Source: Candidatus Latescibacterota bacterium (lineage in GTDB: Bacteria; Latescibacterota; UBA2968; GCA-2709665). Taken from it: a stretch of DNA of 64,000 nt. The stretch covers positions 640,001-704,000 of the forward strand of contig CBDDDZ010000004.1 in assembly GCA_965226795.1 (NCBI GenBank), read 5' to 3'. The translations under genes were made by a program, and so were the position numbers. This document shows positions 23,979 through 40,469 of this stretch, piece after piece. Positions within the stretch are counted from its first letter, which is position 1; the number at the start of each line of letters is the position of its first letter. Below the pieces are notes generated by a model. The model did no database searches and had not been told where the DNA came from. It saw nothing but the letters and a program-made list of their open reading frames with translations.

Positions 23979-25241
23979 TTGGATATCTTGGAAGATCTGG
24001 ACTTCCGGGGGCACGTTTTTCAGGTAACGGACGCCAGCGGACTCAAGGCGCGGCTCGACCAGGGGCCGATAACCCTTTATTCGGGGTTCGACCCCACGGC
24101 AGACAGCCTGCACGCCGGCAACCTGATTCCAATTCTGGGACTGCGGCGGTTTCAATTGGCCGGGCATCACGCAATCGGCCTTATCGGGGGCGGAACCGGC
24201 TTGATTGGCGATCCGAGCGGCAGCAAGGAAGAACGCCCGTTGAACCCGCCCGACATAGTCGCGGCATACACCGAGAAGCTGACAGAACAACTGGCCAAGT
24301 TCCTGGATTTCGAAACAGGAACGAATCCCGCCCAGGTGGTCTGCAATATGGGCTGGCTTTCCGAGCTCAAGGCAATTGACTTCCTGAGGGACACGGGCAA
24401 GCATTTCTCCATGGGTTATATGCTGGCGAAAGAGTCTGTGGCTTCCCGGCTGGAATCCGGAATATCGTTCACCGAATTCAGCTATATGGTCATTCAGGCA
24501 TATGATTTCATGGAGTTGTTTCGGACGCGAGGATGCGAGTTGCAAATTGGCGGGAGCGATCAATGGGGTAATATCACAGCGGGTATAGAGTTGATCCGGC
24601 GTCGGCTGGGCGAGCAGGCCCATGGACTGACGTTTCCGCTGCTTCAGAAAGCCGACGGGTCCAAGTTCGGCAAGACGGCATCCGGTACCGTCTGGCTGGA
24701 CACGGGAAGAACAACGCCCTATCAGTTCTACCAGCACTGGATCAATACGGATGACAGGGATGTCGTGAGGTTTCTGAAGCTGTTTACCTTTCTCTCAAAG
24801 GATGAGATTCGAAATCTGGAATTGGACGTGGCACAACACCCCGAGAAGCGAGAGGCACAGCGGGTGCTGGCCGAGGAGGTCACCACATTCGTACACGACA
24901 GGTCCGCCACCGACAGGGCGCGGCGGATTTCCGAGGCATTGTTTTATGGGGATCTGCGGGATCTGAGCGCGCAAGAGATAGAGGAAGGGTTCAGCGACGT
25001 GCCGTCTCATTCGCTCAATGGCGTTTCAGGAGTGGGTCTGGTCAATTTGCTGGTAGATGTCCGCATTTCAACTTCCATGCGCCAGGCGCGAGAAGACATC
25101 AGGTCCGGCGCGATTCATATCAATGGCCTGCGTTGCACGGATATGGGGCGGATCCTTGAACCTTCCGAGAGACTCGCAGGGAAATACCTGGTGGTTCGCC
25201 GGGGCAAACGCCGCTACTTTCTGGTGCGCTGGAACAATTGA
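23979..25241 (+). CDS. tyrS: Tyrosine--tRNA ligase
   Basis: YSGFDPTADSLHAGN, QIGGSDQWGN, KFGKT, C-terminal S4 domain; TTG start after GGAG. Confidence 0.96.
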   Translation: MDILEDLDFRGHVFQVTDASGLKARLDQGPITLYSGFDPTADSLHAGNLIPILGLRRFQLAGHHAIGLIGGGTGLIGDPSGSKEERPLNPPDIVAAYTEKLTEQLAKFLDFETGTNPAQVVCNMGWLSELKAIDFLRDTGKHFSMGYMLAKESVASRLESGISFTEFSYMVIQAYDFMELFRTRGCELQIGGSDQWGNITAGIELIRRRLGEQAHGLTFPLLQKADGSKFGKTASGTVWLDTGRTTPYQFYQHWINTDDRDVVRFLKLFTFLSKDEIRNLELDVAQHPEKREAQRVLAEEVTTFVHDRSATDRARRISEALFYGDLRDLSAQEIEEGFSDVPSHSLNGVSGVGLVNLLVDVRISTSMRQAREDIRSGAIHINGLRCTDMGRILEPSERLAGKYLVVRRGKRRYFLVRWNN

Positions 25242-25337
25242 TGGGCGGGTGTGTGGCCGCTTATGCTTATCGGAATGCAAATCAGGACATGATAATTCGG
25301 AACTCGGCAGGAAAAACAAAAGGAGAGGATTCCTTCC

Positions 25338-26315
25338 ATGAAAGCACCCTGGATTACCTTTCGGCCGGAACTCAAAGTACTTGATTGTACGATTCGAGAC
25401 GGCGGATTGATGAATGACCATCATTTCACCGATGATTTCGTGAAGGCAGTTTACGTAACCTGCGTTGAAGCAGGGGTCGATTATATGGAAATCGGGTACC
25501 GAAACTCCAAGGAGATGTTTCCAAAAGGACAGTTCGGACCCTTCCGACACAGTGACGAAGAAGATATCCGAAAGATTACGGGCGATCACGACCCTGAAAC
25601 GACCGGCCTGAAGCTCGCCATCATGGCCGATGCGGGCAAGAGCGATTGGGCTGAAGACATCCTGCCGGCCAGCGAGAGCGTGGTCAGCATGGTACGCGTA
25701 GCCTGCTATGTCGAGCAGATCCCTGAAACCGTCGAAATGCTGTGCGACGCACATGAAAAAGGATATGAAACCAGTTGTAACATTATGGCCATTTCGACGG
25801 TGCAGGAGGTCGAGATTGACCAGGCGCTGGAAGTCCTGATACAAACGCCGGTTGGAACAATATGCGTTGTAGATAGTTTCGGTGCATTGTACCGCGAGCA
25901 GGTGGATATGCTCATTCGGAAGTATATGGAAGCCGTCAGTGGAACGGGCAAAGAAGTGGGCATTCATGCGCACAACAACCAGCAACTGGCGTTCGCCAAT
26001 ACCCTGGAAGCGCTCATTCTGGGCGCTAACCGCGTTGATGCCACGGTGGACGGACTTGGCCGCGGCGCGGGAAATTGCCCGCTGGAATTGCTGCTCGGTT
26101 TCCTGCGCAATCCCAAGTTCAAAATTCGACCTGTCTACGAGCTGTTGGAAGACCATTTTGTCAAATTGCGCGGTGAACTGACGTGGGGGCCCCTCATTCC
26201 GTACAATATCACGGGTCAGCACAACCAGCATCCCCGCTCGGCAATGGCGCTTCTGGACGGGGACGACCGAAATCGTTATCTGGATTTCTACGATCAGGTG
26301 ATGAGGGAAATTTAA
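25338..26315 (+). CDS. HMGL-like (DRE-TIM) aldolase catalytic domain protein
   Basis: [29 protein letters not shown]; strong AGGAGAGG RBS. Confidence 0.85.
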
Positions 26316-26415
26316 TCGCCGGCGCCCGCGCTTCGGCAGTCCGCGAGAAAACCGCAGAGGTGGGAACGCCCGCCGAAGCGAGGGTCCGGAACGACGACGG
26401 CGGCTGAGTCCGCCT

Positions 26416-27662
26416 ATGTCACCAAACCTAAATGGAATGGAAACAATGGCACTTCTCAAGGCAGATGGATCCAACCGGACATGGCCCGACTCCGGGGGGC
26501 ATTTCGGACCCTACGGCGGGCGCTACGTACCGGAAACGTTGATGCCGTTGTTGGAGGACCTGGAGGCAGCCTACCGCGACGCGAAGGACCGTCCGGATTT
26601 TCAGGAGGAACTGGGCCGTTATCTCAGGGAATTTGTGGGAAGGCCGACGCCACTCTATTTTGCGCAGCGACTGACCGCCGAACTGGGCGGAGCCAGAATC
26701 TATCTGAAGCGGGAGGACCTCGCGCACACCGGCGCGCACAAAATCAACAATACGATACGATGGGGCAGGTCCTGCTTGCCAGGCGGATGGGCAAAACGCG
26801 GATCATTGCGGAAACGGGCGCAGGACAACACGGTGTGGCGACAGCAACCGTGGCGGCAATGTTCGGAATGGACTGCGAGATTTACATGGGCACCGAAGAC
26901 ATGGACCGGCAGGCGTTGAACGTGTTTCGTATGCGGCTTCTGGGGGCGAAAGTGACGGGTGTGGATTCGGGCAGCAGGACTCTGAAAGATGCGATCAACG
27001 AAGCCATCCGGGACTGGGTGACGAATGTGGAGGATACATTTTATATTTTCGGATCCGTCCTGGGACCTCATCCTTATCCGATGATCGTGCGCGATTTTCA
27101 GCGGGTAATCGGGGTGGAAACGCGCGAACAGATCCTGCAGGCCGAAGGCCGGTTGCCGGAATATCTGATCGCATGCGTCGGCGGCGGCAGCAATTCGATC
27201 GGGCTGTTTCACGCCTTTTTGGAGGACACGGAAGTGCGGATGGTTGGTGTCGAAGCGGGAGGGCATGGAATTGCCTCCGGCGACCATGCGGCGCGATTCC
27301 AGGGCGGGGATGTGGGCGTGCTGCACGGGGCAAGGATTTACCTCTTGCAGGACGAGAACGGGCAGATCGCGCTGACCCATTCGGTGTCCGCGGGCCTGGA
27401 TTATTCGGGTGTCGGGCCCGAGCACTGCCTACTGAGGGATGCGGGTCGGATCGAGTATGTGTACGCAACGGACGACGAGGCCCTGAAGGCCTTCCAGCTG
27501 TTGAGTCGTACGGAGGGAATCATCCCTGCACTGGAAAGCGCGCATGCGATCGCTTACGTGTCCAGAGCAGCGTCCGAAATGGGCAAGGATGCCGTTATCG
27601 TCGTGAATCTTTCAGGCCGTGGTGATAAAGACGTACAGCATGCGGCGAAGTACGTGGACTAG
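26416..27662 (+). pseudogene. trpB: Tryptophan synthase beta chain, frameshifted by a 5-bp duplication (may be an assembly artefact)
   Basis: One frame gives [13 protein letters not shown]...[15 protein letters not shown] and another gives MGQ...AETGAGQHG...SAGLDY...NLSGRGDKD; the junction reads ATACG-ATACG at 26750-26759. Confidence 0.9.
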
Positions 27663-27715
27663 GCGGTATTGGACCGATCGTTTTCACGTCGGAATCGAAG
27701 AATGGGGTCGATCGG

Positions 27716-28528
27716 ATGACAAGGATCGGGAAGCGTTTCGAAGCGTTGAAGAGAGCACACAGGACCGGATTTATAGCCTACATCACGGCGGGAGATCCGG
27801 ACCTGGCCACCACCCGCAAACTGGTGCCGGAGTTGGATCGGCGCGGGGTGGACATTCTCGAGTTGGGCGTGCCGTTCTCCGATCCACTGGCGGACGGGCC
27901 GGAGATCCAGCGGGCATCGCAGCGGGCCCTGCGGCATCGGGTGTCAATCAGCGATGTGCTGGATCTGGTGGCGGACCTGCGCCGGGAGACGGAGATACCG
28001 ATCGTGCTGTTTACGTATTTCAATCCGATGCACCGTTATGGTCTGAAACGGCTCGTCGACCGGGCGGCCGAAGCGGGGGTGGACGGTATTCTGGTGCTGG
28101 ATCTTCCGCCCGAGGAGGCAGCCGAGTACAAGGTTCTGATGTCGGAACGGGGATTGGATACGATTTTTCTAATCGCGCCAAATAGCCGTGAGGATCGCAT
28201 TCAACGGATTGCATCTCATAGCAGCGGGTTTGTGTATTACGTGTCACGCACAGGTGTAACAGGCGAACGGGACAGCCTGGAGGTGACGCTCGGGGCAAAA
28301 GTGGCGACCATCCGACGCCACACGTCGCAGCCGGTTGCGGTGGGATTCGGAATTTCGACGCCCGAACAATCCAGGGAGGTCGCAGGTTATGCCGACGCAG
28401 TCGTCGTCGGCAGCGCAATCGTGCGGCGTATTGCCCAGTGGCAAGCCGAACCGGATCTCGTTTCACAAATTGGGGCATTTGTGGAAGAATTAGTGCAACC
28501 GTTGAAGGGAGCATCCGATGGATCTTGA
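27716..28528 (+). CDS. trpA: Tryptophan synthase alpha chain
   Basis: YITAGDP, ELGVPFSDPLADGP, YYVSRTGVTG, VGFGIS, VVGSAIV. Confidence 0.97.
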   Translation: MTRIGKRFEALKRAHRTGFIAYITAGDPDLATTRKLVPELDRRGVDILELGVPFSDPLADGPEIQRASQRALRHRVSISDVLDLVADLRRETEIPIVLFTYFNPMHRYGLKRLVDRAAEAGVDGILVLDLPPEEAAEYKVLMSERGLDTIFLIAPNSREDRIQRIASHSSGFVYYVSRTGVTGERDSLEVTLGAKVATIRRHTSQPVAVGFGISTPEQSREVAGYADAVVVGSAIVRRIAQWQAEPDLVSQIGAFVEELVQPLKGASDGS

Positions 28529-28811
28529 AGACTGGCGCAAGGAAATCGACGCCCTGAATCAACAACTGTTGGAGCTTCTGAATAAGCGAGCCGAATGCGC
28601 ACTTGAGATCGGCAGGATCAAACAGGCAATCGAGCAACCTGTTTATGCGCCGGAGCGGGAGACATCGATCCTGAACCGAATCCGTCAACTGAACACGGGG
28701 CCCCTGGCCGACGAAGCGGTGCAACGGATATTTCAGCAGATAATCGATGAGTCAAGGCGGCTGGAACAGGAACACGGCGAACGGGAAACGGGGGGCACGA
28801 AACACCTCTGA
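28518..28811 (+). CDS. Monofunctional chorismate mutase (AroQ-type)
   Basis: LEDWRKEIDALNQQLLELLNKR, VYAPERE, IFQQIIDESR. Confidence 0.92.
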   Translation: MDLEDWRKEIDALNQQLLELLNKRAECALEIGRIKQAIEQPVYAPERETSILNRIRQLNTGPLADEAVQRIFQQIIDESRRLEQEHGERETGGTKHL

Positions 28812-28882
28812 ATCCGTTTGTGGAACCGGCCGCAACGGCAAACCATATTGACGGTCGCTATAGGAACCGGAGCTGAAGGCAC

Positions 28883-29911
28883 ATGGCGTTCAGAAGAATC
28901 CTGAAGATACCCACACCCGAAGCCGTGCTGGAAAAGATGTCGCTTCCAAAGGAGCTGAAGACCGTAAAGGAGGAACGCGACGCGGAAATCAGGGACATTT
29001 TCGCCCGCCGGAGCGATAAGTTTCTGCTGGTGATCGGCCCATGTTCGGCGCACAACGAAGATGCCGTATGTGAATACGTATCCAGGTTGGCGAAACTGCA
29101 GGAGGCCGTCCGGGAAAAGCTGGTTCTGGTGCCGCGCATCTATACCAACAAACCCCGCACAACCGGCGAGGGGTACAAGGGCATGGGGCATCAGCCGGAC
29201 CCGCGCAAGGCGCCGGACATATCCGAAGGTATTTATGCGGTTCGTCAGATGCATATCCGGGCTGTCCAGGAGTCCCACCTGACGGCGGCCGACGAAATGC
29301 TGTACCCGGGCAACCTGCCGTATGTCGAGGATCTGCTGAGTTATATAGCCGTGGGTGCACGCTCCGTGGAAAATCAACAGCACCGGTTGACCTGTAGCGG
29401 CGTCGGCGTCCCCGTTGGAATGAAAAACCCGACGGGAGGAGATCTTTCGGTAATGCTGAACGCGATCCATGCCTCGCAGATTCCCCACGTCTTCATTTAT
29501 AACGGTTGGGAGGTGGGCACCGACGGCAATCTCCTGACACACGCAGTGCTTCGGGGCGCCGTGGATGTTAACGGGCGCAGTATTCCGAACTATCACTTCG
29601 AAGACCTCATGTACGCGGCGGAACTCTATCGGCAGCGGCAGCTTGCCAATACCACAATCGTTGTGGATACGAATCACAATAACTCCGGCAAGCAGTTCAG
29701 TGAACAGCCCAGGATCGGGTTGGAGGTGATACGCAGCCGGCGGAGTTCAGAGATTTTAAACGACATGATCCGCGGGTTGATGGTGGAGAGTTATCTGGAT
29801 GAGGGCTCACAGAATGTAAATGACGGCGTGTTCGGCAAATCCATTACCGATCCGTGCCTGGGGTGGAAAGATTCCGAGGCGTTTGTCAAAGAACTGGCGG
29901 AAAGGATATGA
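28883..29911 (+). CDS. aroF: DAHP synthase, class I-alpha
   Basis: IGPCSA, KPRTT, VGARS, VGMKN, LRGA, DTNHNNS, GKSITDPCLGW. Confidence 0.92.
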   Translation: MAFRRILKIPTPEAVLEKMSLPKELKTVKEERDAEIRDIFARRSDKFLLVIGPCSAHNEDAVCEYVSRLAKLQEAVREKLVLVPRIYTNKPRTTGEGYKGMGHQPDPRKAPDISEGIYAVRQMHIRAVQESHLTAADEMLYPGNLPYVEDLLSYIAVGARSVENQQHRLTCSGVGVPVGMKNPTGGDLSVMLNAIHASQIPHVFIYNGWEVGTDGNLLTHAVLRGAVDVNGRSIPNYHFEDLMYAAELYRQRQLANTTIVVDTNHNNSGKQFSEQPRIGLEVIRSRRSSEILNDMIRGLMVESYLDEGSQNVNDGVFGKSITDPCLGWKDSEAFVKELAERI

Positions 29912-29989
29912 AAGCGTACGGGTTCTGGAATCCGGAGGAGATTGGAATGTCTTCTAGACGCTTTTGCCGGGTCTTCCGAGGATAACGGT

Positions 29990-31102
29990 ATGGCGAATGA
30001 TCCTCCGTTTGCGCGTGAGACGATCGCATTTGTTGGTGTTGGGTTGATCGGCGGATCTCTTGGTGTGGCACTCAAGGGTCTGGGTATCGGCCGAAGCATC
30101 GTTGGCATCAGCAGGCAGGAGACGCTGGATGCAGCCCTCGAGTTGAATGTAATCGACGCAGGCTATCGCTATGAGGACCTCGAAAGGGGGATTGGCGAAG
30201 CGGCGCTGGTTTTCCTGTGTACACCCATTGTACGTATTCTGGACCTTCTGCCACAGGTGCTGGGGGCGGCGCGGAAGGGTGCGGTCGTGACCGATGTGGG
30301 CAGCACCAAGCACGCGATTGTTTCCGCGGCGACGGCCCATCAACGTGATGGCGTGTATTTTGTGGGCGGGCACCCGATGGCCGGGTCGGAACATCGCGGG
30401 GTAAGCGCGGCGGATCCATTCCTGTTTCAGAACGCAATTTATGTGTTGACGCCGTCACCGGACACGCCCGAATTCGTGGTCGAAAAGCTCGCGCGCCTCG
30501 TAAGGGCGCTCGGAGCGAGACCCATGAGGATGACTCCTCAGGAACACGACAGGGCGGCGGCGGCGGTGAGTCACCTGCCACAGATGATGGCCACAAGCCT
30601 GGTGTCCATGATCGGACGGATGACCGAGGTCGAAGGGTTGCCGATAAGGATGGCGGCGGGTGGGTTTCGGGATCTGACACGCATTGCATGCAGCCCGTAT
30701 GAAATGTGGCGGGATATCTGCCATACGAACGCGGCCCCGATCCGTGAGATGATCGATCTGTATATCGAGTCGCTGACAGCGATGCGCGGAGCAGTGGATC
30801 ATGACCGGCTGGAGCAGGCATTTGTCTACGCCAATCGGGTACGCGGGCAGATTCCGAAGGACTCCAAGGGGTTTTTGCATCCTCTATTCGAAATTCTCCT
30901 GGTCGCGGAAGACAGACCGGGCGTGATTGCCGACGTCGCTCAGACCCTGGCCGGGAAAAATATTAATATCAACGACATCGAGGTATTGAATGTACGGGAG
31001 GGGGAAGGAGGCACCATCCGCATCGGGTTCGATTCGCGTCCATGCGCGGATCAGGCTGTAGACGTGCTGGGGAAGGCGGGATACAACGTCAGGCTGAGAT
31101 AA
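29990..31102 (+). CDS. tyrA: Prephenate/arogenate dehydrogenase with C-terminal ACT domain
   Basis: GVGLIGGS, DVGSTK, GGHPMAGSE, SHLPQ, GGFRDLTRIA, DRPGVIA. Confidence 0.94.
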   Translation: MANDPPFARETIAFVGVGLIGGSLGVALKGLGIGRSIVGISRQETLDAALELNVIDAGYRYEDLERGIGEAALVFLCTPIVRILDLLPQVLGAARKGAVVTDVGSTKHAIVSAATAHQRDGVYFVGGHPMAGSEHRGVSAADPFLFQNAIYVLTPSPDTPEFVVEKLARLVRALGARPMRMTPQEHDRAAAAVSHLPQMMATSLVSMIGRMTEVEGLPIRMAAGGFRDLTRIACSPYEMWRDICHTNAAPIREMIDLYIESLTAMRGAVDHDRLEQAFVYANRVRGQIPKDSKGFLHPLFEILLVAEDRPGVIADVAQTLAGKNININDIEVLNVREGEGGTIRIGFDSRPCADQAVDVLGKAGYNVRLR

Positions 31103-31181
31103 ACGGAAGGATCCGGAACGGGAAACGATGGAACGAAAGAGATCGCTATCCGTCCTTTTGTGACTCGATTTTGAAGAAGGC

Positions 31182-32495
31182 GTGGCTTTGAAATTCGCGG
31201 GTTCAGTAATTTCCCGGGACACGATCAGTCCCTCGCCGGGGCTTGTGGGGGCGTGCGACCTCCCCGGCGATGCCAGCATGTCGATTATGGCCCTTGTGCT
31301 GTCGTCAATATCCGATGGAATCTCACGGATTCACAGGTGTTCCCAACGACGCGAAGTCAAGCGAACCGGAGAATTGCTGGCGGAACTCGGGATTTCGGTG
31401 GCGTGGGACGGTGAGACCGCAACGGTGACCGGCGGCCACATGGAGGCGCCGGCCGACGTGCTGCGCGTGGGTGGGTCCCTTGTTCTGTTTTCCTGTCTTG
31501 CGGGATTGCTGTCCAATGCGCCCTTTGTGACCAGACTTTCCGGGGTTCGGGCGGATGCCGACGTCGACCGGCTTTTCGACGGGCTCCGCGCGTTGGGCGC
31601 ACACGTGAACATTCCGGTTGAAGACCGGACATCGGCGGGTGTCGGAGGGGGTAAGTTAACGCCCGGATCCTTCCGTGTCGGAGCTCCGGATATAGCGGTG
31701 AAGTGTGGAATGCTTATGGCCGGGCTGGGTGTGGGGGGACCGGTTGAACTGGTACAGGACACGGGCGGGGATGACGACCTGGAAGTTTTGCTGCAAGCAG
31801 CAGGATGCGGGCTGAAAAAGAGCCGGATGAAGGGCGCCGGAGGTCATCGGTTGTTGTTGGAAGGACCGGTACGGCTCCGTGGCGTTACACACGAGTTGCC
31901 GGGCTGCTCGGATGCGGGGCTGTTTCTTGCCCTGGCCGCGGCGATGTTGAAACGGTCTGAGTTGACCGTAACCCATTTCGGAATGGATTCGAGAAGCCGC
32001 AGGATCGTGGATATTTTGCGCCGTATGAACGTATCCATGGATATGGAGCAATACCGGACGGATTCCGGTTTTTCCGTGCGTCGAGTTCGGATCAGGGGGT
32101 CCGAATTGCGTGGAATAAGAATCGCTGGCGCAAATGCCAGACTCTTCAGCGACGTGCTCCCACTCCTGGCGGTCGCGGGCGCGGTTTCGCGGGGTGAAAC
32201 GATCATACGGGATGCCGAGGCGTTGAGAGACGGACCCGTAGACTGCATTTCGGTTTTGGTGGAAAACCTCAGGAAGATGCAGATTCAAGTCGGGGAGATG
32301 CCGGATGGGATGGTTGTGAAGGGCGGGCAACTGCAGGGTGCCGAACTGGATGCCGGCGGCGACATCCGTGTGTCAATGGCACTCGCACTGGCGGCGCTGG
32401 CGAGCGAAGGGGAAACACTTGTAATGAACGCCGGGCCCGTGGACCGGAATTTTCCGGGGATCACAAATCGACTGGCTACGGTATTGGAGACGTAA
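31182..32495 (+). CDS. EPSP synthase (AroA)-fold protein with degenerate active site
   Basis: 437 aa, collinear with class II AroA motifs and located after tyrA, but catalytic motifs read PGDASMSIM, GGSLV, DIAVKC, LRDGPVDCI, DIRVSM. Confidence 0.8.
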   Translation: MALKFAGSVISRDTISPSPGLVGACDLPGDASMSIMALVLSSISDGISRIHRCSQRREVKRTGELLAELGISVAWDGETATVTGGHMEAPADVLRVGGSLVLFSCLAGLLSNAPFVTRLSGVRADADVDRLFDGLRALGAHVNIPVEDRTSAGVGGGKLTPGSFRVGAPDIAVKCGMLMAGLGVGGPVELVQDTGGDDDLEVLLQAAGCGLKKSRMKGAGGHRLLLEGPVRLRGVTHELPGCSDAGLFLALAAAMLKRSELTVTHFGMDSRSRRIVDILRRMNVSMDMEQYRTDSGFSVRRVRIRGSELRGIRIAGANARLFSDVLPLLAVAGAVSRGETIIRDAEALRDGPVDCISVLVENLRKMQIQVGEMPDGMVVKGGQLQGAELDAGGDIRVSMALALAALASEGETLVMNAGPVDRNFPGITNRLATVLET

Positions 32496-32587
32496 GTCGT
32501 TTGAATCGTTCAGGTGCCCGCCGCTTATGTTGGCGGCAGGGGCTGCACGAGACCACGTGGGTCAATCATCGGTACGAGGAGAGTCTT

Positions 32588-32728
32588 ATGAGACTGGTTG
32601 TCAGGTTGTTCCTTCTGGCGTTGCTCGTGTTCCTGGGAGGCGTGGTTTTTATTCGGTACACCTACAACTGTTCCTGGAAGGAGAGTTTTGCAATTGCCGA
32701 CCAGTTTGTGTCGGACCTGACCCGTTGA
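32588..32728 (+). CDS. Small single-TM membrane protein, 46 aa
   Basis: GAGGAG RBS; MRLVVRLFLLALLVFLGGVVFIRYTYNCSWKESFAIADQFVSDLTR. Confidence 0.7.
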   Translation: MRLVVRLFLLALLVFLGGVVFIRYTYNCSWKESFAIADQFVSDLTR

Positions 32729-32792
32729 GCAACGCGTTGCCCGTTGCGGTGCGGGGAATCTCAATCGGCCAGACGTAAAATCGGGTATCGCC

Positions 32793-32954
32793 GTGTTCTG
32801 TCCCGGAAATAGATTGCCAGAATTCGGCAGCCGAGTCGCCCGGCTGGCAAGGCGCCTGAGCGAGGCGACCTGGGCAAGGTCGGCGAGCGATGGCAACGCA
32901 GCGAGGCGGGATGAATCGGCGGATGAATGGTAACATATTTCTGGGACGGGACAC
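32793..32954. mobile_element. MITE-like element, copy 2 (162 bp)
   Basis: Ends GTGTTCTGTCCCGGAAA / TTTCTGGGACGGGACAC; interior aligns by eye with copy 1 plus a ~12-nt insertion. Confidence 0.8.
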
Positions 32955-32976
32955 TGATAGGTCAGGGGAGTCTGTT

Positions 32977-33843
32977 TTGAGTATTGTCTCAACCACGCGG
33001 TTGCTTGGGGTAATCGGGGATCCCATTGCCCATTCGTTATCGCCGGACATGCACAATGCGGCCATAAGGAATCTTGAAATAGACTACTGTTACGTAGCCT
33101 TTCACGTATTGCCGGATGGGGTTGAATCGGCGCTTCAGGGTATGCGCGCCCTGCAGATCCGGGGTTTGAACGTAACCCTTCCACACAAGACTGCGGTGAT
33201 GGCGCACCTGGACCGGATTTCGGTAGAAGCGCTGGCCGTGGGCGCGGTGAATACGATTTCTTTCAGGGACGGCGAACTGGTCGGGTACAATACCGACGTG
33301 TACGGGTTGGCTACCGCGCTGGAGCGGACCGCGGGCCTCGCCGTGCTGCCGGAGCATTGCGTGATTCTCGGCGCGGGCGGCGTGGCGCGGGCTGCTGCTT
33401 ATGCGCTGGCTACGCAAAACGAGGTGCGGCGGGTGAGCATTCTCAATCGAACCGTTGCCCGGGCGGAGGCGCTCGCGCGTGATATGGAACGGACCACCGG
33501 CAAGTCCATCGACGCCGGCGATCTGACGACAGACACCCAGACGAGGCGGTTCGCGGATGCCGGCCTCGTCGTAAATTGTAATTCGCTGGGGATGTATCCG
33601 AACGTGGAGCGGACCCCCCTGGCGGATACAGACCCGATACACTCCCAACTGGTACTCTACGATACGGTTTTCAACCCGCTGGATACGCTGCTGATGCGGC
33701 AGTTTCGATCGGCGGGCGCGCCGGCTTTCGGAGGGCTGGACATGCTGGTGCACCAGGGTGCGAGTTCGTTTACCATCTGGACGGGAATCGAGCCGCCCGT
33801 CGACGTCATGAAGCAGGCGGTAATCGGCCGGTTTCGAGCGTAG
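32977..33843 (+). CDS. aroE: Shikimate dehydrogenase
   Basis: GDPIAHSLSP, NVTLPHK, GAVNT, NTD, LGAGG, NRT, GLDMLVHQG. Confidence 0.95.
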   Translation: MSIVSTTRLLGVIGDPIAHSLSPDMHNAAIRNLEIDYCYVAFHVLPDGVESALQGMRALQIRGLNVTLPHKTAVMAHLDRISVEALAVGAVNTISFRDGELVGYNTDVYGLATALERTAGLAVLPEHCVILGAGGVARAAAYALATQNEVRRVSILNRTVARAEALARDMERTTGKSIDAGDLTTDTQTRRFADAGLVVNCNSLGMYPNVERTPLADTDPIHSQLVLYDTVFNPLDTLLMRQFRSAGAPAFGGLDMLVHQGASSFTIWTGIEPPVDVMKQAVIGRFRA

Positions 33844-33845
33844 CG

Positions 33846-34565
33846 GTGGCGCGGTCCAATCTGCAGGAACGCCGGGAAAAGCGGACCCTTGTGCGTCAGA
33901 TGTTCGACGGCATAGCCGGTACGTACGATCTGTTGAACCATCTGTTGAGCGCCGGCATGGATATTCTCTGGAGACGATGGACAGTCGACGCACTGGAATT
34001 GCAGGCAGGCTGGTGGATCCTGGACCTTGCAACGGGAACGGGGGATCTGGGCCTCGAAGCGGCGGCGCGTGATCCGGGAGTGCGGGTTGTGGGTGCGGAC
34101 CTGTCCCTGCCGATGCTTCGGCTTGGAAACAAAAAACTGAATAGAAGATCCGGCCAACAGTTTCTCTTATGTGGAGACGCGGAGCGGCTGCCGTTTCCCG
34201 ATGAGCGGTTTCATGCCGTAACGATTGGTTTCGGCGTACGGAACTTTTCGGAACTGTCCGTTGGCCTTCGGGAAATACAACGGGTTTTGCGCCCCGGAGG
34301 CCGGTTGGCAATTCTGGAGTTTTCCCGGCCCAGGGCGTTTCTATTGCGCAGGGTCTACTTTTTTTATTTTAAATTCATCCTGCCCGGGATCGGCCGGCTT
34401 GTTTCCCGGAATCCTCTGGCGTATCGGTATCTTTATGAGTCTGTTATGGATTTTCCTGAGGGAGAGGCATTCCGAAGCCGGCTGACGCAGGCCGGTTTTC
34501 TAGATCCGGTGGAACGTCGGTTGACCTTTGGGATTGCGACCATCTATTTGGCTTCAAAACCGTAA
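33846..34565 (+). CDS. menG: Demethylmenaquinone methyltransferase (UbiE/MenG)
   Basis: MFDGIAGTYDLLNHLLS, LDLATGTGD, FGVRN, AYRYLYES. Confidence 0.92.
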   Translation: MARSNLQERREKRTLVRQMFDGIAGTYDLLNHLLSAGMDILWRRWTVDALELQAGWWILDLATGTGDLGLEAAARDPGVRVVGADLSLPMLRLGNKKLNRRSGQQFLLCGDAERLPFPDERFHAVTIGFGVRNFSELSVGLREIQRVLRPGGRLAILEFSRPRAFLLRRVYFFYFKFILPGIGRLVSRNPLAYRYLYESVMDFPEGEAFRSRLTQAGFLDPVERRLTFGIATIYLASKP

Positions 34566-34583
34566 CGACTCTTTGCCCGTCAT

Positions 34584-34928
34584 ATGGTCGTTATTAATTC
34601 TTGCCCCAGTTTTATTGGGCGCATCGCTTGTGGCCTTTTGGCGGTTGCGGCAGAACGTGCCTGGCAACACCTGCGTGCGCATCGGTTTGATGGCTTTTAC
34701 TTTCGACGGCAACAAATCATCGACAGCTTTATTGTCGATTTCTACTGTCATTCAGTCGGATTGGCAATTGAAGTCGATGGCGAGGTTCGCCAGAATCAGG
34801 TTGCTTATGGTGCAAAACGAGACGGCATTCTCAAAGCGCGAGGATTCCAAGTTTTACGCATTGCAAATGTTGAAATTCGCACGAATTCAGATGGCGTTCT
34901 CCAATCAATCAGAGCTTATATAAAATAG
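34584..34928 (+). pseudogene. DUF559 (Vsr-like) endonuclease domain, probably 5'-truncated and degenerate
   Basis: AERAWQHLR...FRRQQII..FIVDFYC...LAIEVDG...RD..L...GFQVLRI; lower GC than neighbours; usual N-terminus and the His after EVDG are missing. Confidence 0.7.
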
Positions 34929-34951
34929 TGTATACTCAACACTTAGTTCAA

Positions 34952-34991
34952 CTCCCCCTTTCCTTGTAGGAGGGGAAACTGGGGGAGAGGT
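34952..34991. repeat. REP-like palindrome next to the DUF559 gene
   Basis: CTCCCCCTTTCC-TTGT-AGGAGGGG...GGGGGAGAGG, similar to the CCCTCTCC..GGAGAGGG palindromes that often flank DUF559 genes. Confidence 0.5.
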
Positions 34992-34999
34992 CATCCTTT

Positions 35000-36703
35000 A
35001 TGGTCAATCCTTTTATTGAAGAAATCGTATCGCTTGTGTCAAAAGCGACTGACATGCGCCCCGATGAGGTGAGGGCGCTGATCGAGGTCCCTCCAAAACC
35101 CACTATGGGGGATTACACCCTTCCGTGTTTCAGGCTTGCAAAAACGCTGCGAAAGGCGCCGAATCAGATCGCCGCGGATCTTGGGGAGCGGGTACGGACG
35201 GGCGGACGCATCGCCCGGGTCAGGGCTGAGGGCCCATATCTCAACATTTTCGTTAGCCAGACCGAATTTGTGCGGGAGACGCTTTCGGAAATTCTCGCAA
35301 GGGGCGAGCAATTCGGACGGAGCGAGGCAGGCGCGGGGAAAACGATCGTGGTCGATTTTTCGTCACCGAATATCTCCAAGCCATTCACTATAGCCCACAT
35401 CCGTTCGACAGCGATCGGAAATTCGCTCTGCAGGATATACAGGGCCCTCGGTTGGAACGTGCTCGGTATCAATCACCTTGGTGACTGGGGCGCCCCACAC
35501 GGGATGAATATCGCGGCGTACAAACGCTGGGGAGACGAGAACGCGGTTCGCAGGAATCCGGCCTATGAGCTATTTAATTTGTACGTAAAATTCAATACCG
35601 AGATGGAACGGGATCCGTCTCTCAGAGACGACGTGAAGGACTGGACCAGGAAGCTGGAGGCGGGCGATGCCGAGGCGCTCAGACTCTGGAATTGGTTCAG
35701 GGACGAGACCATAAAGGACTTCAAGCGAATTTATGAATTAATGGACGTGGAATTTAGCGAATATACAGGAGAGAGTTTTTTTCACGATAAGGTGGGGCCG
35801 GTTGTCGACGAACTCAAGGCGAAGGGGCTGGCCGTGGAGAGTGAGGGCGCCCTCGTGGTGATGCTGGACGATGAAGATATGCCTCCGGCCATCATCCAGA
35901 CCGGACACGATACCAGCGTCTATCTCACGCGGGATCTGGCCGCTGCGATTTACCGCAAGCAAACCTACGACTTCGATAAGTTGATCTATGCGACCGACGC
36001 CGGGCAGTCCCTGCATTTTCGGCAGCTTTTCAAGGTGTTGGAACGGATGGGCTATGAGTGGGCGAAAGACTGTGTGCACGTCCCGTTCGGTATCATTTCC
36101 TTCAAAGACGGAAGGATGTCTACGCGCAGGGGCAACGTGATTTTCCTGGAGGATGTGCTGAACCGTGCGATAGAGCTGACACGGGATATTATAGAGGACA
36201 AGAATCCGGATCTTCCCAATAAAGACGGGATCGCCCGGGATGTGGGCATCGGCGCGGTGGTCTACGCGGATCTCGATTCCCGCCGGACGCGGGACGTGGT
36301 GTTCGACTGGGATGAGATCCTTAACTTTAACGGCGAGACCGGCCCCTACGTCCAATATACCCATGCGCGTTATCGCAGTGTCCTACGTAAATACGGAGGC
36401 GCCGTGCCGCCGCCCGATGCAGACCTTTCTCTGTTAACCGAACCCGAGACGGTGGCGGTGGTCAAGTGCCTGGAACGGTATCCGGCGCGAATCCGGAACG
36501 CGGCCGAGGCCTGCGAGCCGTCTCTGATTGCCGGGTTCCTGATCGAACTCTGTACAGAGGCGAACCGGTTTTACAACGCCCACCGGGTCATTTCGGATGA
36601 CCTGACCCTGACGCGGGCGCGCATCGCCCTGGTTTATTCCATCACTGTCGTGCTGTCGGCCGGCCTTCATCTGCTCGGGTTGCGGGCCCCCGAGGAGATG
36701 TGA
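35000..36703 (+). CDS. argS: Arginine--tRNA ligase
   Basis: GPYLN, VDFSSPN, NHLGDWG, YLTRDLAAA, MSTRRG, GETGPYVQYTHAR, PEEM C-terminus. Confidence 0.96.
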   Translation: MVNPFIEEIVSLVSKATDMRPDEVRALIEVPPKPTMGDYTLPCFRLAKTLRKAPNQIAADLGERVRTGGRIARVRAEGPYLNIFVSQTEFVRETLSEILARGEQFGRSEAGAGKTIVVDFSSPNISKPFTIAHIRSTAIGNSLCRIYRALGWNVLGINHLGDWGAPHGMNIAAYKRWGDENAVRRNPAYELFNLYVKFNTEMERDPSLRDDVKDWTRKLEAGDAEALRLWNWFRDETIKDFKRIYELMDVEFSEYTGESFFHDKVGPVVDELKAKGLAVESEGALVVMLDDEDMPPAIIQTGHDTSVYLTRDLAAAIYRKQTYDFDKLIYATDAGQSLHFRQLFKVLERMGYEWAKDCVHVPFGIISFKDGRMSTRRGNVIFLEDVLNRAIELTRDIIEDKNPDLPNKDGIARDVGIGAVVYADLDSRRTRDVVFDWDEILNFNGETGPYVQYTHARYRSVLRKYGGAVPPPDADLSLLTEPETVAVVKCLERYPARIRNAAEACEPSLIAGFLIELCTEANRFYNAHRVISDDLTLTRARIALVYSITVVLSAGLHLLGLRAPEEM

Positions 36704-36972
36704 GTCACGGATAGCCGTACCACCCTTCCGAAAACGGCGCTGAACGCCATCGGAATCCTGATTTCGTCATTATTGAAGGCACCCTGGAGATATTTTTCTC
36801 AGAGGTGGTTGTGAATGGAAACCGGACTGGCTGCGCTTGATTCTGTTACCCCGTTAATGAAGGGGCGACACGCACGCCATTGTACTTCATCCAGAAAGAA
36901 TTCCGCGCCGATCGTAGCCGCTCAGATCAATTGTACAGATCGCCACGCGCGGGCATGGCGGGGGCCCGTGCC

Positions 36973-37518
36973 GTGAACCGGTTGCAGGGCAGACAGATTT
37001 TCCTGACGGGGTTCATGGCGACCGGCAAGAGCAAGATCGGGCGGATTCTGGCGCAGCGCCTGGGTCGGATATTTGTAGATACCGATGCGTTGATCGTGGA
37101 GACGGCCGGGAAGTCGATACCCCGGATCTTTGCGGAAGACGGAGAGACCGCCTTCCGTCGTATCGAGCGCAGTTGCGTGGTGCGGGCGGCCGGGATGAGG
37201 GAGGCCGTGATTGCTCTGGGTGGCGGCGCGGTCACACACGAGGAGAACCGGGATACGATTCGCGCATCCGGTGTGTGCCTGTGTCTGCGGGCATCTGCTG
37301 AGACCATCTTCACGCGCCTGCGCAGGACAGAAGGAGAACGGCCGCTGATGGCTGGATTGAACGATGAAGACCGGATGGCAAAGATCCGGTCGATGCTGGC
37401 CGCCCGGGCGCCGTTTTACGACCGTGCGGATGTATTCGTGGAGTCGACGGAGTGTCGCACGCTGGAAGAGACCGTTGAACTGGCAGTGTCGGCTTTGGAA
37501 GGTCTTGAATTGCAATAA
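36973..37518 (+). CDS. aroK: Shikimate kinase (start uncertain)
   Basis: LTGFMATGKS, FVDTD, IFAEDGETAFR, ALGGGAV, RPL. Confidence 0.95.
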   Translation: MNRLQGRQIFLTGFMATGKSKIGRILAQRLGRIFVDTDALIVETAGKSIPRIFAEDGETAFRRIERSCVVRAAGMREAVIALGGGAVTHEENRDTIRASGVCLCLRASAETIFTRLRRTEGERPLMAGLNDEDRMAKIRSMLAARAPFYDRADVFVESTECRTLEETVELAVSALEGLELQ

Positions 37519-37567
37519 GGATGTTGGAAGACCACTGCCTATGGGATCTCAAGTCGTACAGAGCAGT

Positions 37568-38671
37568 ATGCAGACCGTGCAGGTCGACCTGGGCAGTCGC
37601 AGTTATCCGATCCTGATTGGATACGGGATCCTGTCTGAATTCGGCGAGGCGTACGCGGCGGCCGGATTGGGTTCGACTGCGGCGATCGTGACCAACCCGA
37701 CAGTGGCGCCGCTCTACCTGGATCCGGTCAGGGCCGGACTGGTGGCGCGGGGTGTGGCTGTGACGGTGGTGGAGATTCCGGATGGAGAGGAATTCAAGAC
37801 ACTGGAGACGGCAGGGCGGATATATGGCGAACTGATTCAGGCCGGCCTGGATCGGCGGAGTTGTATCGTAACGCTGGGGGGCGGTGTTGTGGGAGATACG
37901 GCCGGATTCGTGGCGGCGACGTATCTGCGCGGAATCGATTTCGTACAGGTCCCCACCACCCTGGAGGCGCAGGTCGATGCCAGCGTCGGCGGGAAAACAG
38001 GGGTGGATCACCCGCTGGGAAAGAATATGATCGGAGCATTTTATCAGCCGAAGCTGGTCTATGTTGACACGGAAACGCTGATGACCCTACCCAGGAGGGA
38101 GGTGGCTGCCGGGATGGCTGAGGTAATCAAACACGGATTGATCCGCGACGTGGGACTCGTGGAAGTCCTGGAAAATTCGATCGAGATGGTGGCGGATCTG
38201 GCGATCGAACCGGAACAGTTGGTCAGGTTAATCGCGCGAAACTGCCGCATTAAGGCCGATGTCGTGGCGGCGGATGAGACCGAGGCGGGATTACGGGAAA
38301 TCCTCAACTATGGTCACACGGTGGGACACGCCATAGAGGCGGTAACGAATTACACGGTTTACAAACACGGAGAGGCCGTATTGCTGGGCATGCTCGCCGC
38401 GGGTAGAATCGGGGTCATCAAGGGGTTCTGGGAACACGCGGAACTGGAACGGCAGAACGCGTTAATCGGAAGACTCGGGATTCCGTCCGGCGCCGGCATA
38501 CTCGTAGCAGACGAACTGATCGGACGAATGGCGAGCGACAAGAAAGCGCGGGATGGGGTGATCCGGTTTGTCCTGCCGGAGGCGATCGGCCGTGGGGTGT
38601 CGTGCGACACCGTGAATAGACAGGAGATCGAGGACGGGATTCGGTATATGCAGGACCGTTCAGACCGATAG
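37568..38671 (+). CDS. aroB: 3-dehydroquinate synthase
   Basis: DGEEFK, LGGGVVGD, VPTTL..QVDASVGGKTG, GKNMIGAFYQP, LNYGHTVGHA, HGEAV. Confidence 0.97.
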   Translation: MQTVQVDLGSRSYPILIGYGILSEFGEAYAAAGLGSTAAIVTNPTVAPLYLDPVRAGLVARGVAVTVVEIPDGEEFKTLETAGRIYGELIQAGLDRRSCIVTLGGGVVGDTAGFVAATYLRGIDFVQVPTTLEAQVDASVGGKTGVDHPLGKNMIGAFYQPKLVYVDTETLMTLPRREVAAGMAEVIKHGLIRDVGLVEVLENSIEMVADLAIEPEQLVRLIARNCRIKADVVAADETEAGLREILNYGHTVGHAIEAVTNYTVYKHGEAVLLGMLAAGRIGVIKGFWEHAELERQNALIGRLGIPSGAGILVADELIGRMASDKKARDGVIRFVLPEAIGRGVSCDTVNRQEIEDGIRYMQDRSDR

Positions 38672-38792
38672 GTCTACAGGTTGCGATCAGGAGATCGGAC
38701 GGCGCCGTGTTTCGTCTCCCCGAGGAACGGACGCGGTCGATCTGCACCGCCTCAATCTGGCTCGGCCCACTGACCCGTTGAAACGTTCCTCT

Positions 38793-39296
38793 TCAACGGG
38801 TCAGTTGTTTGATAACCGCGCTGTGTTCGGGAAAGCTCCGAATCAGATCGGCCCGGTTCGCCAGTTCAAAGTCTTTAAATTCGAAACCGGGGGCAACCGT
38901 GCCGCCCACCAGCGCGTATGAGCCGGGCTCATTCAGCGTAGCTCCGTACCAGCAGCGGGGGTTGATGACCGCCGTGAACGATTCATCGTCTTCGGGGTTG
39001 TTGCCTAGCAGGATTCGGTTGTATTCGCCGCTTTGATCGATTGTATGGATGGTGATGGACGATCCCGCATAGAAGTGCCAGACTTCGTCGGATTGAATGC
39101 GGTGAAGGGTGGAAAAGTCGTCGCCCTCAAGCAGGAAGTAGATGGCGGTTGAAAACGATCGGGGGCCGTTGAACCGCTCCGGGAGGGCCTGAGCCGCAAT
39201 GGTCTCCTCCGAACGGTATATTTCCCGATAAAAGCCGCCTTCGGGATGCTTTCTGAGTTTCAACTTTGAGATCCAGTAATCGGCACTCTGGCTCAT
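38793..39296 (-). CDS. Cupin_5 (DUF985) family protein
   Basis: HPEGGFYRE, TAIYFLL, HRIQSDEVWHFYAG, VAPGFEFKDFE. Confidence 0.93.
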   Translation of the reverse strand: MSQSADYWISKLKLRKHPEGGFYREIYRSEETIAAQALPERFNGPRSFSTAIYFLLEGDDFSTLHRIQSDEVWHFYAGSSITIHTIDQSGEYNRILLGNNPEDDESFTAVINPRCWYGATLNEPGSYALVGGTVAPGFEFKDFELANRADLIRSFPEHSAVIKQLTR

Positions 39297-39416
39297 GGCT
39301 ATTGGAAAAACCTGCGGAACGCGGGCGAGACAATCTCACCTCTTTTGCTTTCTTTTAGAGGCGATCAGATGACAATCTCAGCTCCGGGGATGGCAACAAA
39401 ACGTGGCGATATGCGC

Positions 39417-40469
39417 CTATGCTATAACACCTCCCCCCAGACAAATGTCGCCATCGTAGAAGACGGCCGATTGTCCGGCGGCCACACCCGGATCCGTTTC
39501 CGACATTTGCACGTTCAGCCGGGTACCGCCGGCGGGCGCAATGCGACACGGGACGGTCCGGGGGCCGTGTCGGATTTTGACGTGAACGTCGCGCCGATCG
39601 GGGGCGCCGGAGATCCAGTTCGGGTTTGATACCGTGAAACGACTGGACGCCCGGTCCGCCAGGTGTGTCCTGTGGGACACGTAGATGACGTTTCCATGGG
39701 TGTCTTTCCTGACCACGTACCAGGGGCCGGCGGCAAGGCCCAGGCCTTCGCGCTGGCCGATGGTGTAAAACCAGTAACCCCGGTGGCGACCGAGCCGGGC
39801 GCCCGATTCCAGTTCGATGATGTCACCGGGCCTTTCTCCAAGATGCACCCTGACAAAGTCGGTGTAACTGATTTTCCCCAGAAAACAGATGCCCTGGCTG
39901 TCCTTGCGGTTGTGGTTGGGCAGACCGAAGTTCCGTGCGTGTTGCCGGACCTGCGGTTTGGTGAGATGCCCGATGGGGAAACATGCGCGTTTGAGCTGCG
40001 CCTGGCTGAGTGCGGAAAGAAAGTATGTCTGGTCCTTGACGGGGTCCGGCGCCCGCCTCAGGTAACAGGTACCGTCTAATTCGTCGATTCGGGCATAATG
40101 CCCCGAAGCGACTTTGTGGTAGCTGCTGTCGATTCGTTTGGCGAACTCACCGAATTTGATGCGCCGATTGCAGACGATGTCCGGGCTCGGCGTGCGTCCG
40201 GCTCTGAGTTCGGACACGGCGTGGGAGACCACCCGGTCCAGGTATTCGGCCTGAAGGGACACAATACGGAGCGGAACACCGGCCTGTTCGGAGACAGCGC
40301 GCACGTACTTGAGGTCTTCCTCCCAGGGGCAGTCGCCCAGGAAGGCCAGTTCGTCTTCAAGCCAGACCTTGAGGTAGAATGCGGTGATCTCGTGGCGCCG
40401 CTCTCTGCACAACAGGTTGAGGGCCACGGAACTGTCGACGCCGCCGGAGAGCAGGAGGGCGATTTTCAT
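39417..40469 (-). CDS. mnmA: tRNA-specific 2-thiouridylase
   Basis: SGGVDSS, TPSPDIVCN..IKFG, SGHYA, KDQTYFL, DSQGICF, TIGQR, GQSAVFY. Confidence 0.96.
   Translation of the reverse strand: MKIALLLSGGVDSSVALNLLCRERRHEITAFYLKVWLEDELAFLGDCPWEEDLKYVRAVSEQAGVPLRIVSLQAEYLDRVVSHAVSELRAGRTPSPDIVCNRRIKFGEFAKRIDSSYHKVASGHYARIDELDGTCYLRRAPDPVKDQTYFLSALSQAQLKRACFPIGHLTKPQVRQHARNFGLPNHNRKDSQGICFLGKISYTDFVRVHLGERPGDIIELESGARLGRHRGYWFYTIGQREGLGLAAGPWYVVRKDTHGNVIYVSHRTHLADRASSRFTVSNPNWISGAPDRRDVHVKIRHGPRTVPCRIAPAGGTRLNVQMSETDPGVAAGQSAVFYDGDICLGGGVIA

Follow-up and report, generated by a model that had tools for sequence, protein, structure and literature searches.

Within the 64,000-nucleotide stretch of Candidatus Latescibacterota DNA analysed here (the window), a gene downstream of tyrA codes for an AroA-like protein that displays the full-length fold of 5-enolpyruvylshikimate-3-phosphate (EPSP) synthase with nearly all of its substrate-binding and catalytic residues replaced. 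We consider it highly probable that this protein is catalytically dead and kept by selection. The gene is under purifying selection, which is strongest on the C-terminal lobe, and EPSP is predicted to be made by a canonical class-I-like aroA at another place in the genome. We lean, by a modest degree, to the view that the AroA-like protein is a non-catalytic accessory protein with a binding or regulatory function, acting via its C-terminal lobe while the canonical aroA makes EPSP.

An earlier account of this DNA, made from its letters and open reading frames (ORFs) without database searches (the sequence-only reading), had described an intact 437-residue ORF after tyrA that keeps the motif order of class II EPSP synthases, and had listed the motifs replaced within it. 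The ORF, the phmmer alignments and the Pfam match bore out the first description, and each of the listed replacements was seen when the protein was aligned by phmmer with class II EPSP synthases of known structure (Coxiella 4gfp/3tr1; Bacillus halodurans 3rmt). PGDKSISHR was changed to PGDASMSIM, GNSGT to GGSLV, RRPM to DADV, SAQVKS to DIAVKC, RDHTE to DDDLE, LRVKETDR to LRDGPVDC and DHR to DIR. In a MAFFT alignment numbered by E. coli AroA, 22 positions were checked and 19 were found replaced (K22, R27, N94, G96, T97, R100, P101, R124, S169, S170, Q171, S197, K198, N336, K340, E341, R344, H385, K411), with S23, D313 and R386 the only three retained. The sequence-only reading had named Asp313 and Arg386 as the sole survivors; both are kept and nearly all else is lost, although Ser23 is kept as well. 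Among the residues that bind shikimate 3-phosphate (S3P) or phosphoenolpyruvate or take part in catalysis (K22, R27, R124, S169-Q171, D313, K340, E341, R344, H385, R386, K411), D313 and R386 alone remained, and proper alignment brought out no hidden catalytic set. As a control, the genome's second aroA and 41 AroA genes from other phyla were put through the same procedure. It recovered the canonical residues in the former and in all 41 of the latter at the positions each covers, a few carrying conservative variants (e.g., R100K), so the loss of residues is not an alignment artefact.

The fold and the reading frame were intact alongside this loss. Pfam PF00275 covered the whole length of the protein (residues 21-431, aligned with profile positions 7-417 of 417; 167.9 bits), and an AlphaFold2 model built with a 45-sequence family alignment had two lobes and was predicted with high confidence (predicted local distance difference test, pLDDT, 92.2; predicted template modelling score, pTM, 0.91). 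A Foldseek search with this model returned class II EPSP synthases at template modelling (TM) scores of 0.76-0.83 with 24-26% identity. The profile alignment and structure prediction that the sequence-only reading had proposed as checks therefore both confirmed the fold, and its claim that the fold had been retained without stops or frameshifts held up, given the intact ORF, the confident model and the purifying selection described below. In a phylogenetic tree the AroA-like copy was placed among class II sequences and not with class I. It has the same full-length two-lobe fold and motif order as the class II EPSP synthases of Coxiella burnetii (3TR1/3SLH/4GFP), Bacillus halodurans (3RMT) and Agrobacterium CP4 (2GG4), and in the operon it takes the place that an active class II aroA has in a different class of the phylum (L054; Gnnn and Lnnn denote genomes and loci, and f2-f9 and g6 are working labels for families and genera). 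It differs from all of these in being without most binding and catalytic residues, in being redundant with a canonical aroA, in occurring as a single lobe in some relatives and in its score of 148.4 bits against the aroA equivalog model TIGR01356, which is below the cut-off of 287.25. The top NCBIfam row was a TyrA-EPSP synthase fusion model (PRK14806; 187.3 bits against a cut-off of 902). MurA has the superfamily fold in common with the AroA-like protein, but the match was far weaker (TIGR01072; 62.3 bits) and well below the MurA cut-off of 392.7, and the genome carries a separate MurA-like gene on contig C5.

The sequence-only reading had also implied an active aroA elsewhere in the genome or an incomplete shikimate pathway, and a canonical second aroA, predicted to be active, was indeed present (G000:C2:425511-426734). 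This gene scored 454.1 bits on TIGR01356 and 418 bits on the Pfam model, retained all key residues and stood by itself, flanked by genes for a PHP-domain protein and an M48 peptidase. In the tree it grouped with the class I AroA of E. coli with 100% support in the Shimodaira-Hasegawa-like approximate likelihood ratio test (SH-aLRT). The gene for chorismate synthase, the user of EPSP, was also present (aroC; 476.6 bits). Across the window's order, an aroA above the cut-off was found in 52 of 53 genomes, the exception (G005) being a 320-contig assembly. This co-occurrence bears on the alternative that the AroA-like proteins form a very divergent, unclassified class of still-working EPSP synthase, as their full-length fold and operon position might suggest and as some sources imply by naming family members 3-phosphoshikimate 1-carboxyvinyltransferase. 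Such an enzyme would have to work alongside a canonical aroA, with K22, R27, R124, Q171, K340, E341, R344, H385 and K411 all replaced, a score half the equivalog cut-off and some members of only half the normal size, and we regard it as hardly credible.

Positional orthologues of the gene, preceded by tyrA and followed by a 46-residue ORF and aroE, were found throughout the window's class, and every one inspected was dead, which answers the search for orthologues of the same fate that the sequence-only reading had proposed. The phylum search covered 168 genomes, of which 146 contained an AroA-like match at an E-value of 1e-20 or better and 153 an aroA above the cut-off; 20 further loci were examined beyond the 30 loci of the order. 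A full-length intact orthologue was present in 13 of the 14 other genomes of the window's genus (71-85% identity), and among the other genera of the window's family five had full-length copies (49-52% identity). The AroA-like gene of one genome of this family (G018) was found as pieces at contig ends. Another, G016 (L029), held a remnant of residues 279-434 only, with no start codon found upstream of the aligned part. The sister family f2 carried full-length copies in ten genomes of four genera (40-46% identity), and all 21 genomes of its genus g6 held only the part from about residue 238 to the end. The gene order DAHP (3-deoxy-D-arabino-heptulosonate 7-phosphate) synthase, tyrA, AroA-like gene, aroE, ubiE was kept throughout the 30 loci of the order, within the reach of each, and tyrA was the upstream neighbour at every AroA-like locus for which the upstream flank was covered. 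In family f4 of the same class, the 14 sampled loci all displayed the order chorismate mutase, tyrA, AroA-like gene, aroE; their proteins have 25-34% identity to the window protein and all 14 were dead, with R386 lost as well. Two loci of f3 contained dead half-size genes. Families f5, f6 and f9, which belong to other classes, carried a class II aroA with every key residue; in f9 it comes immediately before aroE and ubiE, and tyrA lies about 1.5 kb upstream of it. The dead state in the sampled f4 and f3 loci, together with the active class II genes of f5, f6 and f9, indicates that the dead state is class-wide and that the operon originally held an active class II aroA. Two loci, L050 (G078) and L054 (G050), had about 1.4-1.5 kb of DNA between tyrA and the AroA or AroA-like gene.

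The ratio of nonsynonymous to synonymous substitution rates (dN/dS) was calculated by the Nei-Gojobori method (Table 1) from 7 spread pairs for the AroA-like gene in the window's genus (dS 0.06-0.64), from the 30 closest pairs for tyrA and aroE in the same genus, and from 15 pairs in g6; aroE values for pairs with L015 or L016 were left out owing to an alignment problem (dN = -1).

Table 1. dN/dS of the AroA-like gene and its neighbours in the window's genus and in g6.
Gene or part	Window's genus	g6
AroA-like, full length	0.23-0.34	not applicable
AroA-like, N-terminal 237 codons	0.29-0.44	absent
AroA-like, C-terminal 200 codons	0.17-0.37	0.10-0.21
tyrA	about 0.10-0.27	0.07-0.24
aroE	about 0.10-0.27	0.10-0.19

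YN00 estimates on three pairs gave a similar range for the AroA-like gene (0.29-0.33), and bootstrapping the pair formed by the window and its closest relative gave an interval of 0.20-0.40. In a simple neutral simulation on the window ORF, 3.65% of sequences were still without a stop at 0.1 substitutions per site, falling to 0.3% at 0.2. Purifying selection thus acts on the protein, in full-length and half-size forms alike. Neutral decay, which the sequence-only reading had named among the outcomes that would overturn its proposal, was not observed. A neutral pseudogene that has not yet decayed would be consistent with the one deletion (G001) and the one remnant (G016) encountered. This explanation is, however, extremely improbable given the full-length dN/dS of 0.23-0.34, the 13 stop-free orthologues of the genus (at most 3.65% expected at 0.1 or more substitutions per site), the confident predicted fold and the retention over the whole class. 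Judged on these sequence comparisons, both neutral decay and residual EPSP synthase activity are very unlikely.

Constraint was unevenly distributed over the protein. Mean column entropy in the C-terminal half was 1.60 bits in the dead family compared to 1.54 bits in canonical AroA, whereas in the N-terminal half it was 2.03 compared to 1.58 bits. Only residues from about 238-249 onward remained in 23 genomes (21 of g6 and 2 of f3), and two of the three independent truncations, those in g6 and f3, lay at the structural domain boundary and left a complete lobe. The G016 remnant may, in contrast, be a true pseudogene. The g6 halves were 216-219 residues in length, began with their own ATG behind an AGAGGG-type ribosome-binding site and retained the E341, R344 and R386 equivalents. 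One stand-alone half had a confident predicted fold (pLDDT 94.9) that matched one lobe of EPSP synthase at TM scores of 0.79-0.81. With dN/dS values of 0.10-0.21, the stand-alone C-terminal lobes were as constrained as the neighbouring tyrA and aroE. On the best reading of these results, the retained value of the AroA-like protein lies in its C-terminal lobe.

In the best tree, 18 of 18 dead sequences formed one clade, with an SH-aLRT support of only 69.6%, and the dead sequences also shared derived residues (R273, R280, G371, V378 and a Gly in place of K340). A single origin of the dead state is likely because of this clade and these shared residues. We propose that the AroA-like gene would be the original class II aroA of the operon, that a class-I-like aroA would have taken over from it, and that a single loss of catalysis would then have followed at the base of the class. 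The role retained would be protein binding. The likeliest partner may be encoded by a neighbour, either TyrA upstream or a 46-residue peptide encoded directly downstream, whose translation is coupled to that of the AroA-like gene in many lineages. A profile search of 1.84 billion representative sequences returned 1,955 proteins at an E-value of 1e-30 or better. Among the best 150 of these, 18 retained less than half of a set of 11 key residues and another was a dead half; the remaining 131 were mostly canonical, with 123 keeping 11 of 11. A search for short homologues returned only 6 proteins, mostly contig-end fragments. Five full-coverage proteins among the same best 150 kept only 6-8 of the 11 key EPSP synthase residues and may be intermediate or independently degenerating AroA copies.

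The sequence-only reading had proposed a candidate pseudoenzyme kept for another role, and the dead active site, the fold and the purifying selection support this proposal. Of the four roles it had suggested (scaffold, regulator, partner of an active paralogue, new substrate), a new substrate is the least supported, because only seven sites (S48, G228, R280, A315, G371, V378, A400) are strongly conserved in the dead family while being variable in real AroA, and these form no new catalytic set. A neofunctionalised protein, whose fold would bind another small molecule or catalyse another reaction via new residues, could account for the cleft-facing motifs that are newly conserved within the order (Cys at E. 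coli position 101 in 98% of sequences, GDDD-L-E in place of RDHTE, Gly at K340) and for the presence of the E341, R344 and R386 equivalents in the g6 halves. We nevertheless consider it improbable. The order-level motifs (Cys at 101, GDDD-L-E, Cys at 344) are not kept in f4, where R386 is lost too, and the seven family-specific sites are mostly Gly, Ala, Val or Ser. Single-lobe forms are unable to build the interdomain cleft, and the basic residues that would attract anionic substrates are now neutral or acidic. RNA binding, suggested by the many arginines of the protein, was not supported, the C-terminal half having a net charge of about -0.6 and an arginine fraction of 0.098 compared to 0.088 in canonical AroA.

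A different explanation requires no function of the product. The gene would be a translated spacer, kept mainly through translational coupling within the operon (tyrA, AroA-like gene, 46-residue ORF, aroE), whose later genes ribosomes could reach only by translating it, and the constraint on its sequence would reflect the avoidance of a misfolded and costly product. Coupling is indeed close in many lineages. The distance from the AroA-like stop to the ATG of the downstream small ORF in 16 f4 loci was -4 nucleotides (nt) in nine, -1 in three and +1 to +11 in four, the g6 halves showed gaps of -4 in four and +4 in two, and tyrA abuts the AroA-like gene in most f4 loci. Repeated shortening from the N-terminus, together with one full deletion in the window's genus, whose gaps have widened to 73-104 nt, would also fit the trimming of a spacer. 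In the window's genus, however, the gene is coupled to neither neighbour (gaps of 56-237 nt in 13 of 14 loci, and of 73-104 nt) and is nevertheless intact in 13 of the 14 other genomes with a dN/dS of about 0.3. The halves are constrained like real enzymes (0.10-0.21), the g6 and f3 truncations leave a complete lobe and not an arbitrary stub, and persistence over class-level divergence (25-34% identity) is hard to explain without a benefit. On this evidence we judge the spacer explanation unlikely.

We prefer the accessory reading because the lobe is as constrained as its neighbours, two of three truncations fall at the domain boundary and the gene has persisted at the level of the class. That the AroA-like protein serves specifically as an accessory protein of the aromatic amino-acid operon is a suggestion to which we give roughly even chances. 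Several observations weigh against it. In the window's genus the dN/dS of the AroA-like gene is approximately twice that of tyrA and aroE, and this genus, with its open junctions, shows both the weakest constraint and the sole clean deletion, which favours the spacer explanation. One genome (G001) has deleted the gene and another (G016) keeps the start-less remnant, so the gene is dispensable in some lineages. The seven family-specific sites include one charged residue (R280) and suggest no obvious new binding surface. Distance correlations over 47 loci do not favour TyrA over AroE as a partner (partial correlations of 0.51 and 0.50, respectively), and the corresponding value for the small ORF was 0.17. 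Contigs from four RNA-library runs of two studies covered the AroA-like gene to about the same word depth as tyrA and aroE, which establishes presence in the libraries and not transcription, as the coverage may be DNA carry-over and does not prove expression.

HisZ is a catalytically dead paralogue of histidyl-tRNA synthetase that serves as a regulatory subunit of ATP phosphoribosyltransferase. It resembles the AroA-like protein in that a housekeeping enzyme has a dead paralogue which is retained in the setting of amino-acid biosynthesis, and its role is of the kind proposed here. It differs in its fold, and its partner and function have been demonstrated, whereas those of the AroA-like protein are only proposed. 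The nearest published parallel is the EPSP synthase remnant of Pseudomonas syringae. Song, Bonner, Wolinsky and Jensen (2005; BMC Biol 3:13; PMC1173090) describe a TyrA-AroF fusion (AroF being EPSP synthase in Jensen's nomenclature) whose EPSP synthase domain has lost about 200 N-terminal residues, a loss that went together with a stand-alone aroA gained by lateral transfer. In the relevant section the remnant is described as a recent pseudogene and the possibility of its becoming a new regulatory domain is raised; another passage speaks of a C-terminal truncation. As in that account, a tyrA-linked EPSP synthase has lost its function with a second, stand-alone aroA elsewhere in the genome, and the half missing from g6 and f3 is likewise the N-terminal one. 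The P. syringae remnant is, by the same account, fused to TyrA, recent and a pseudogene for which no evidence of selection is given, in contrast to the AroA-like gene, which is separate, full length in the window, old, class-wide and under purifying selection. In the window, tyrA ends with its own stop 79 nt upstream. An apparent TyrA fusion in three f4 loci (L044-L046), where open frames of 738-837 residues were found, was rejected: in these loci tyrA is read in a different frame and terminates 8-17 nt ahead of the AroA-like part, so that a 'Rosetta stone' argument for interaction was dropped. Our literature searches turned up no account of an EPSP synthase pseudoenzyme; what came nearest was the 2005 paper on P. 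syringae. A more specific extension of the accessory reading is that the C-terminal lobe of a displaced EPSP synthase now works on its own in the tyrosine branch, as an adaptor or as a regulatory domain. It would bind TyrA or, via the co-translated 46-residue peptide, anchor pathway enzymes at the membrane. Such a HisZ-like regulatory pseudoenzyme of the shikimate pathway would have arisen convergently wherever a tyrA-linked aroA was displaced, as in this Latescibacterota class and in P. syringae. In this detailed form we regard the proposal as speculative and unlikely.

If the lobe does bind TyrA or another pathway protein, it would be a novel kind of element for the control or assembly of the aromatic amino-acid pathway. 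The family also offers a natural experiment on dead enzymes, comprising an old gene, whole and single-lobe forms, an active ancestor-like copy in a sister class and a recent clean deletion. Family members are sometimes named 3-phosphoshikimate 1-carboxyvinyltransferase, which presents an annotation problem. Residue-based schemes for glyphosate sensitivity would bin them as 'unclassified EPSPS' (preprint 10.1101/2020.05.27.118265), and the parts of that preprint dealing with the 'unclassified' bin make no mention of inactive copies. The AroA-like proteins are most likely not the glyphosate target.

The genome is 5.41 Mb in five contigs, and the cluster in the window runs trpB, trpA, chorismate mutase (CM_2), DAHP synthase, tyrA, AroA-like gene, aroE, a ubiE-like methyltransferase gene, argS and aroK (Table 2).

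Table 2. Coordinates of the AroA-like gene, its parts and its neighbours in the window.
Feature	Coordinates	Strand	Description
AroA-like pseudoenzyme gene	31182..32495	+	437 aa, EPSP synthase fold, catalytic residues lost
AroA-like N-terminal part, residues 1-237	31182..31892	+	mostly the S3P-binding lobe of real AroA; less constrained; missing from half-size relatives
AroA-like C-terminal lobe, residues 238-437	31893..32492	+	the part retained in intact forms of either length
tyrA, prephenate dehydrogenase with ACT domain (PDH_N, PDH_C, ACT)	29942..31102	+	upstream neighbour
46-aa small ORF	32588..32728	+	TM-like (transmembrane-like) N-terminus, conserved tail; directly downstream of the AroA-like gene
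aroE, shikimate dehydrogenase	32890..33843	+	downstream neighbour; longest-ORF coordinates

The AroA-like ORF is free of internal stops and starts at GTG 31182 or TTG 31188, preceded by a GAAGG ribosome-binding site; the database version of the protein has 435 residues. An Rfam scan of positions 24000-40000 gave no match at E-values up to 0.1, and promoter and terminator scans near the locus returned no more sites than shuffled sequence (6 compared to 5.2 and 10 compared to 11.6, respectively).

The small ORF between the AroA-like gene and aroE was previously unannotated and is preceded by a GAGGAG ribosome-binding site. It was present in all 30 loci of the order and in 18 of the 20 further loci, including those of f9 and f5 with an active aroA. 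It is also retained in G001, which is without the AroA-like gene. At that locus of the window's genus (L055; G001:C15) the deletion is clean, with tyrA ending at 2640, the small ORF at 2837-2971 and aroE starting at about 3007. Within the genus the peptides are 93-100% identical, differing by a mean of 11.1 nt but only 1.7 amino acids (dN/dS 0-0.03). The start often overlaps the upstream stop as ATGA, and in many relatives the ORF overlaps or abuts the AroA-like stop. Pfam and NCBIfam searches assigned it to no significant family (Pfam E-values of 0.17 and 0.25, far below the cut-offs; no NCBIfam match), and a protein atlas contained no match of 0.9 or more. Sixteen unnamed database proteins correspond to it.

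Between the small ORF and aroE lies a repeat of about 163 bp (approximately 32793-32955) with 47 matches in its own genome. Depth in the RNA-library contigs spikes to 280-570x over this repeat, and it is not in a related strain, the contigs of X11 and X13 skipping 32789-32958. It looks like a small mobile element resembling a miniature inverted-repeat transposable element (MITE). Homologues of aroE align only from residue 19-30 onward, and the true start of aroE is probably TTG 32978, because ATG 32890 falls inside the repeat.

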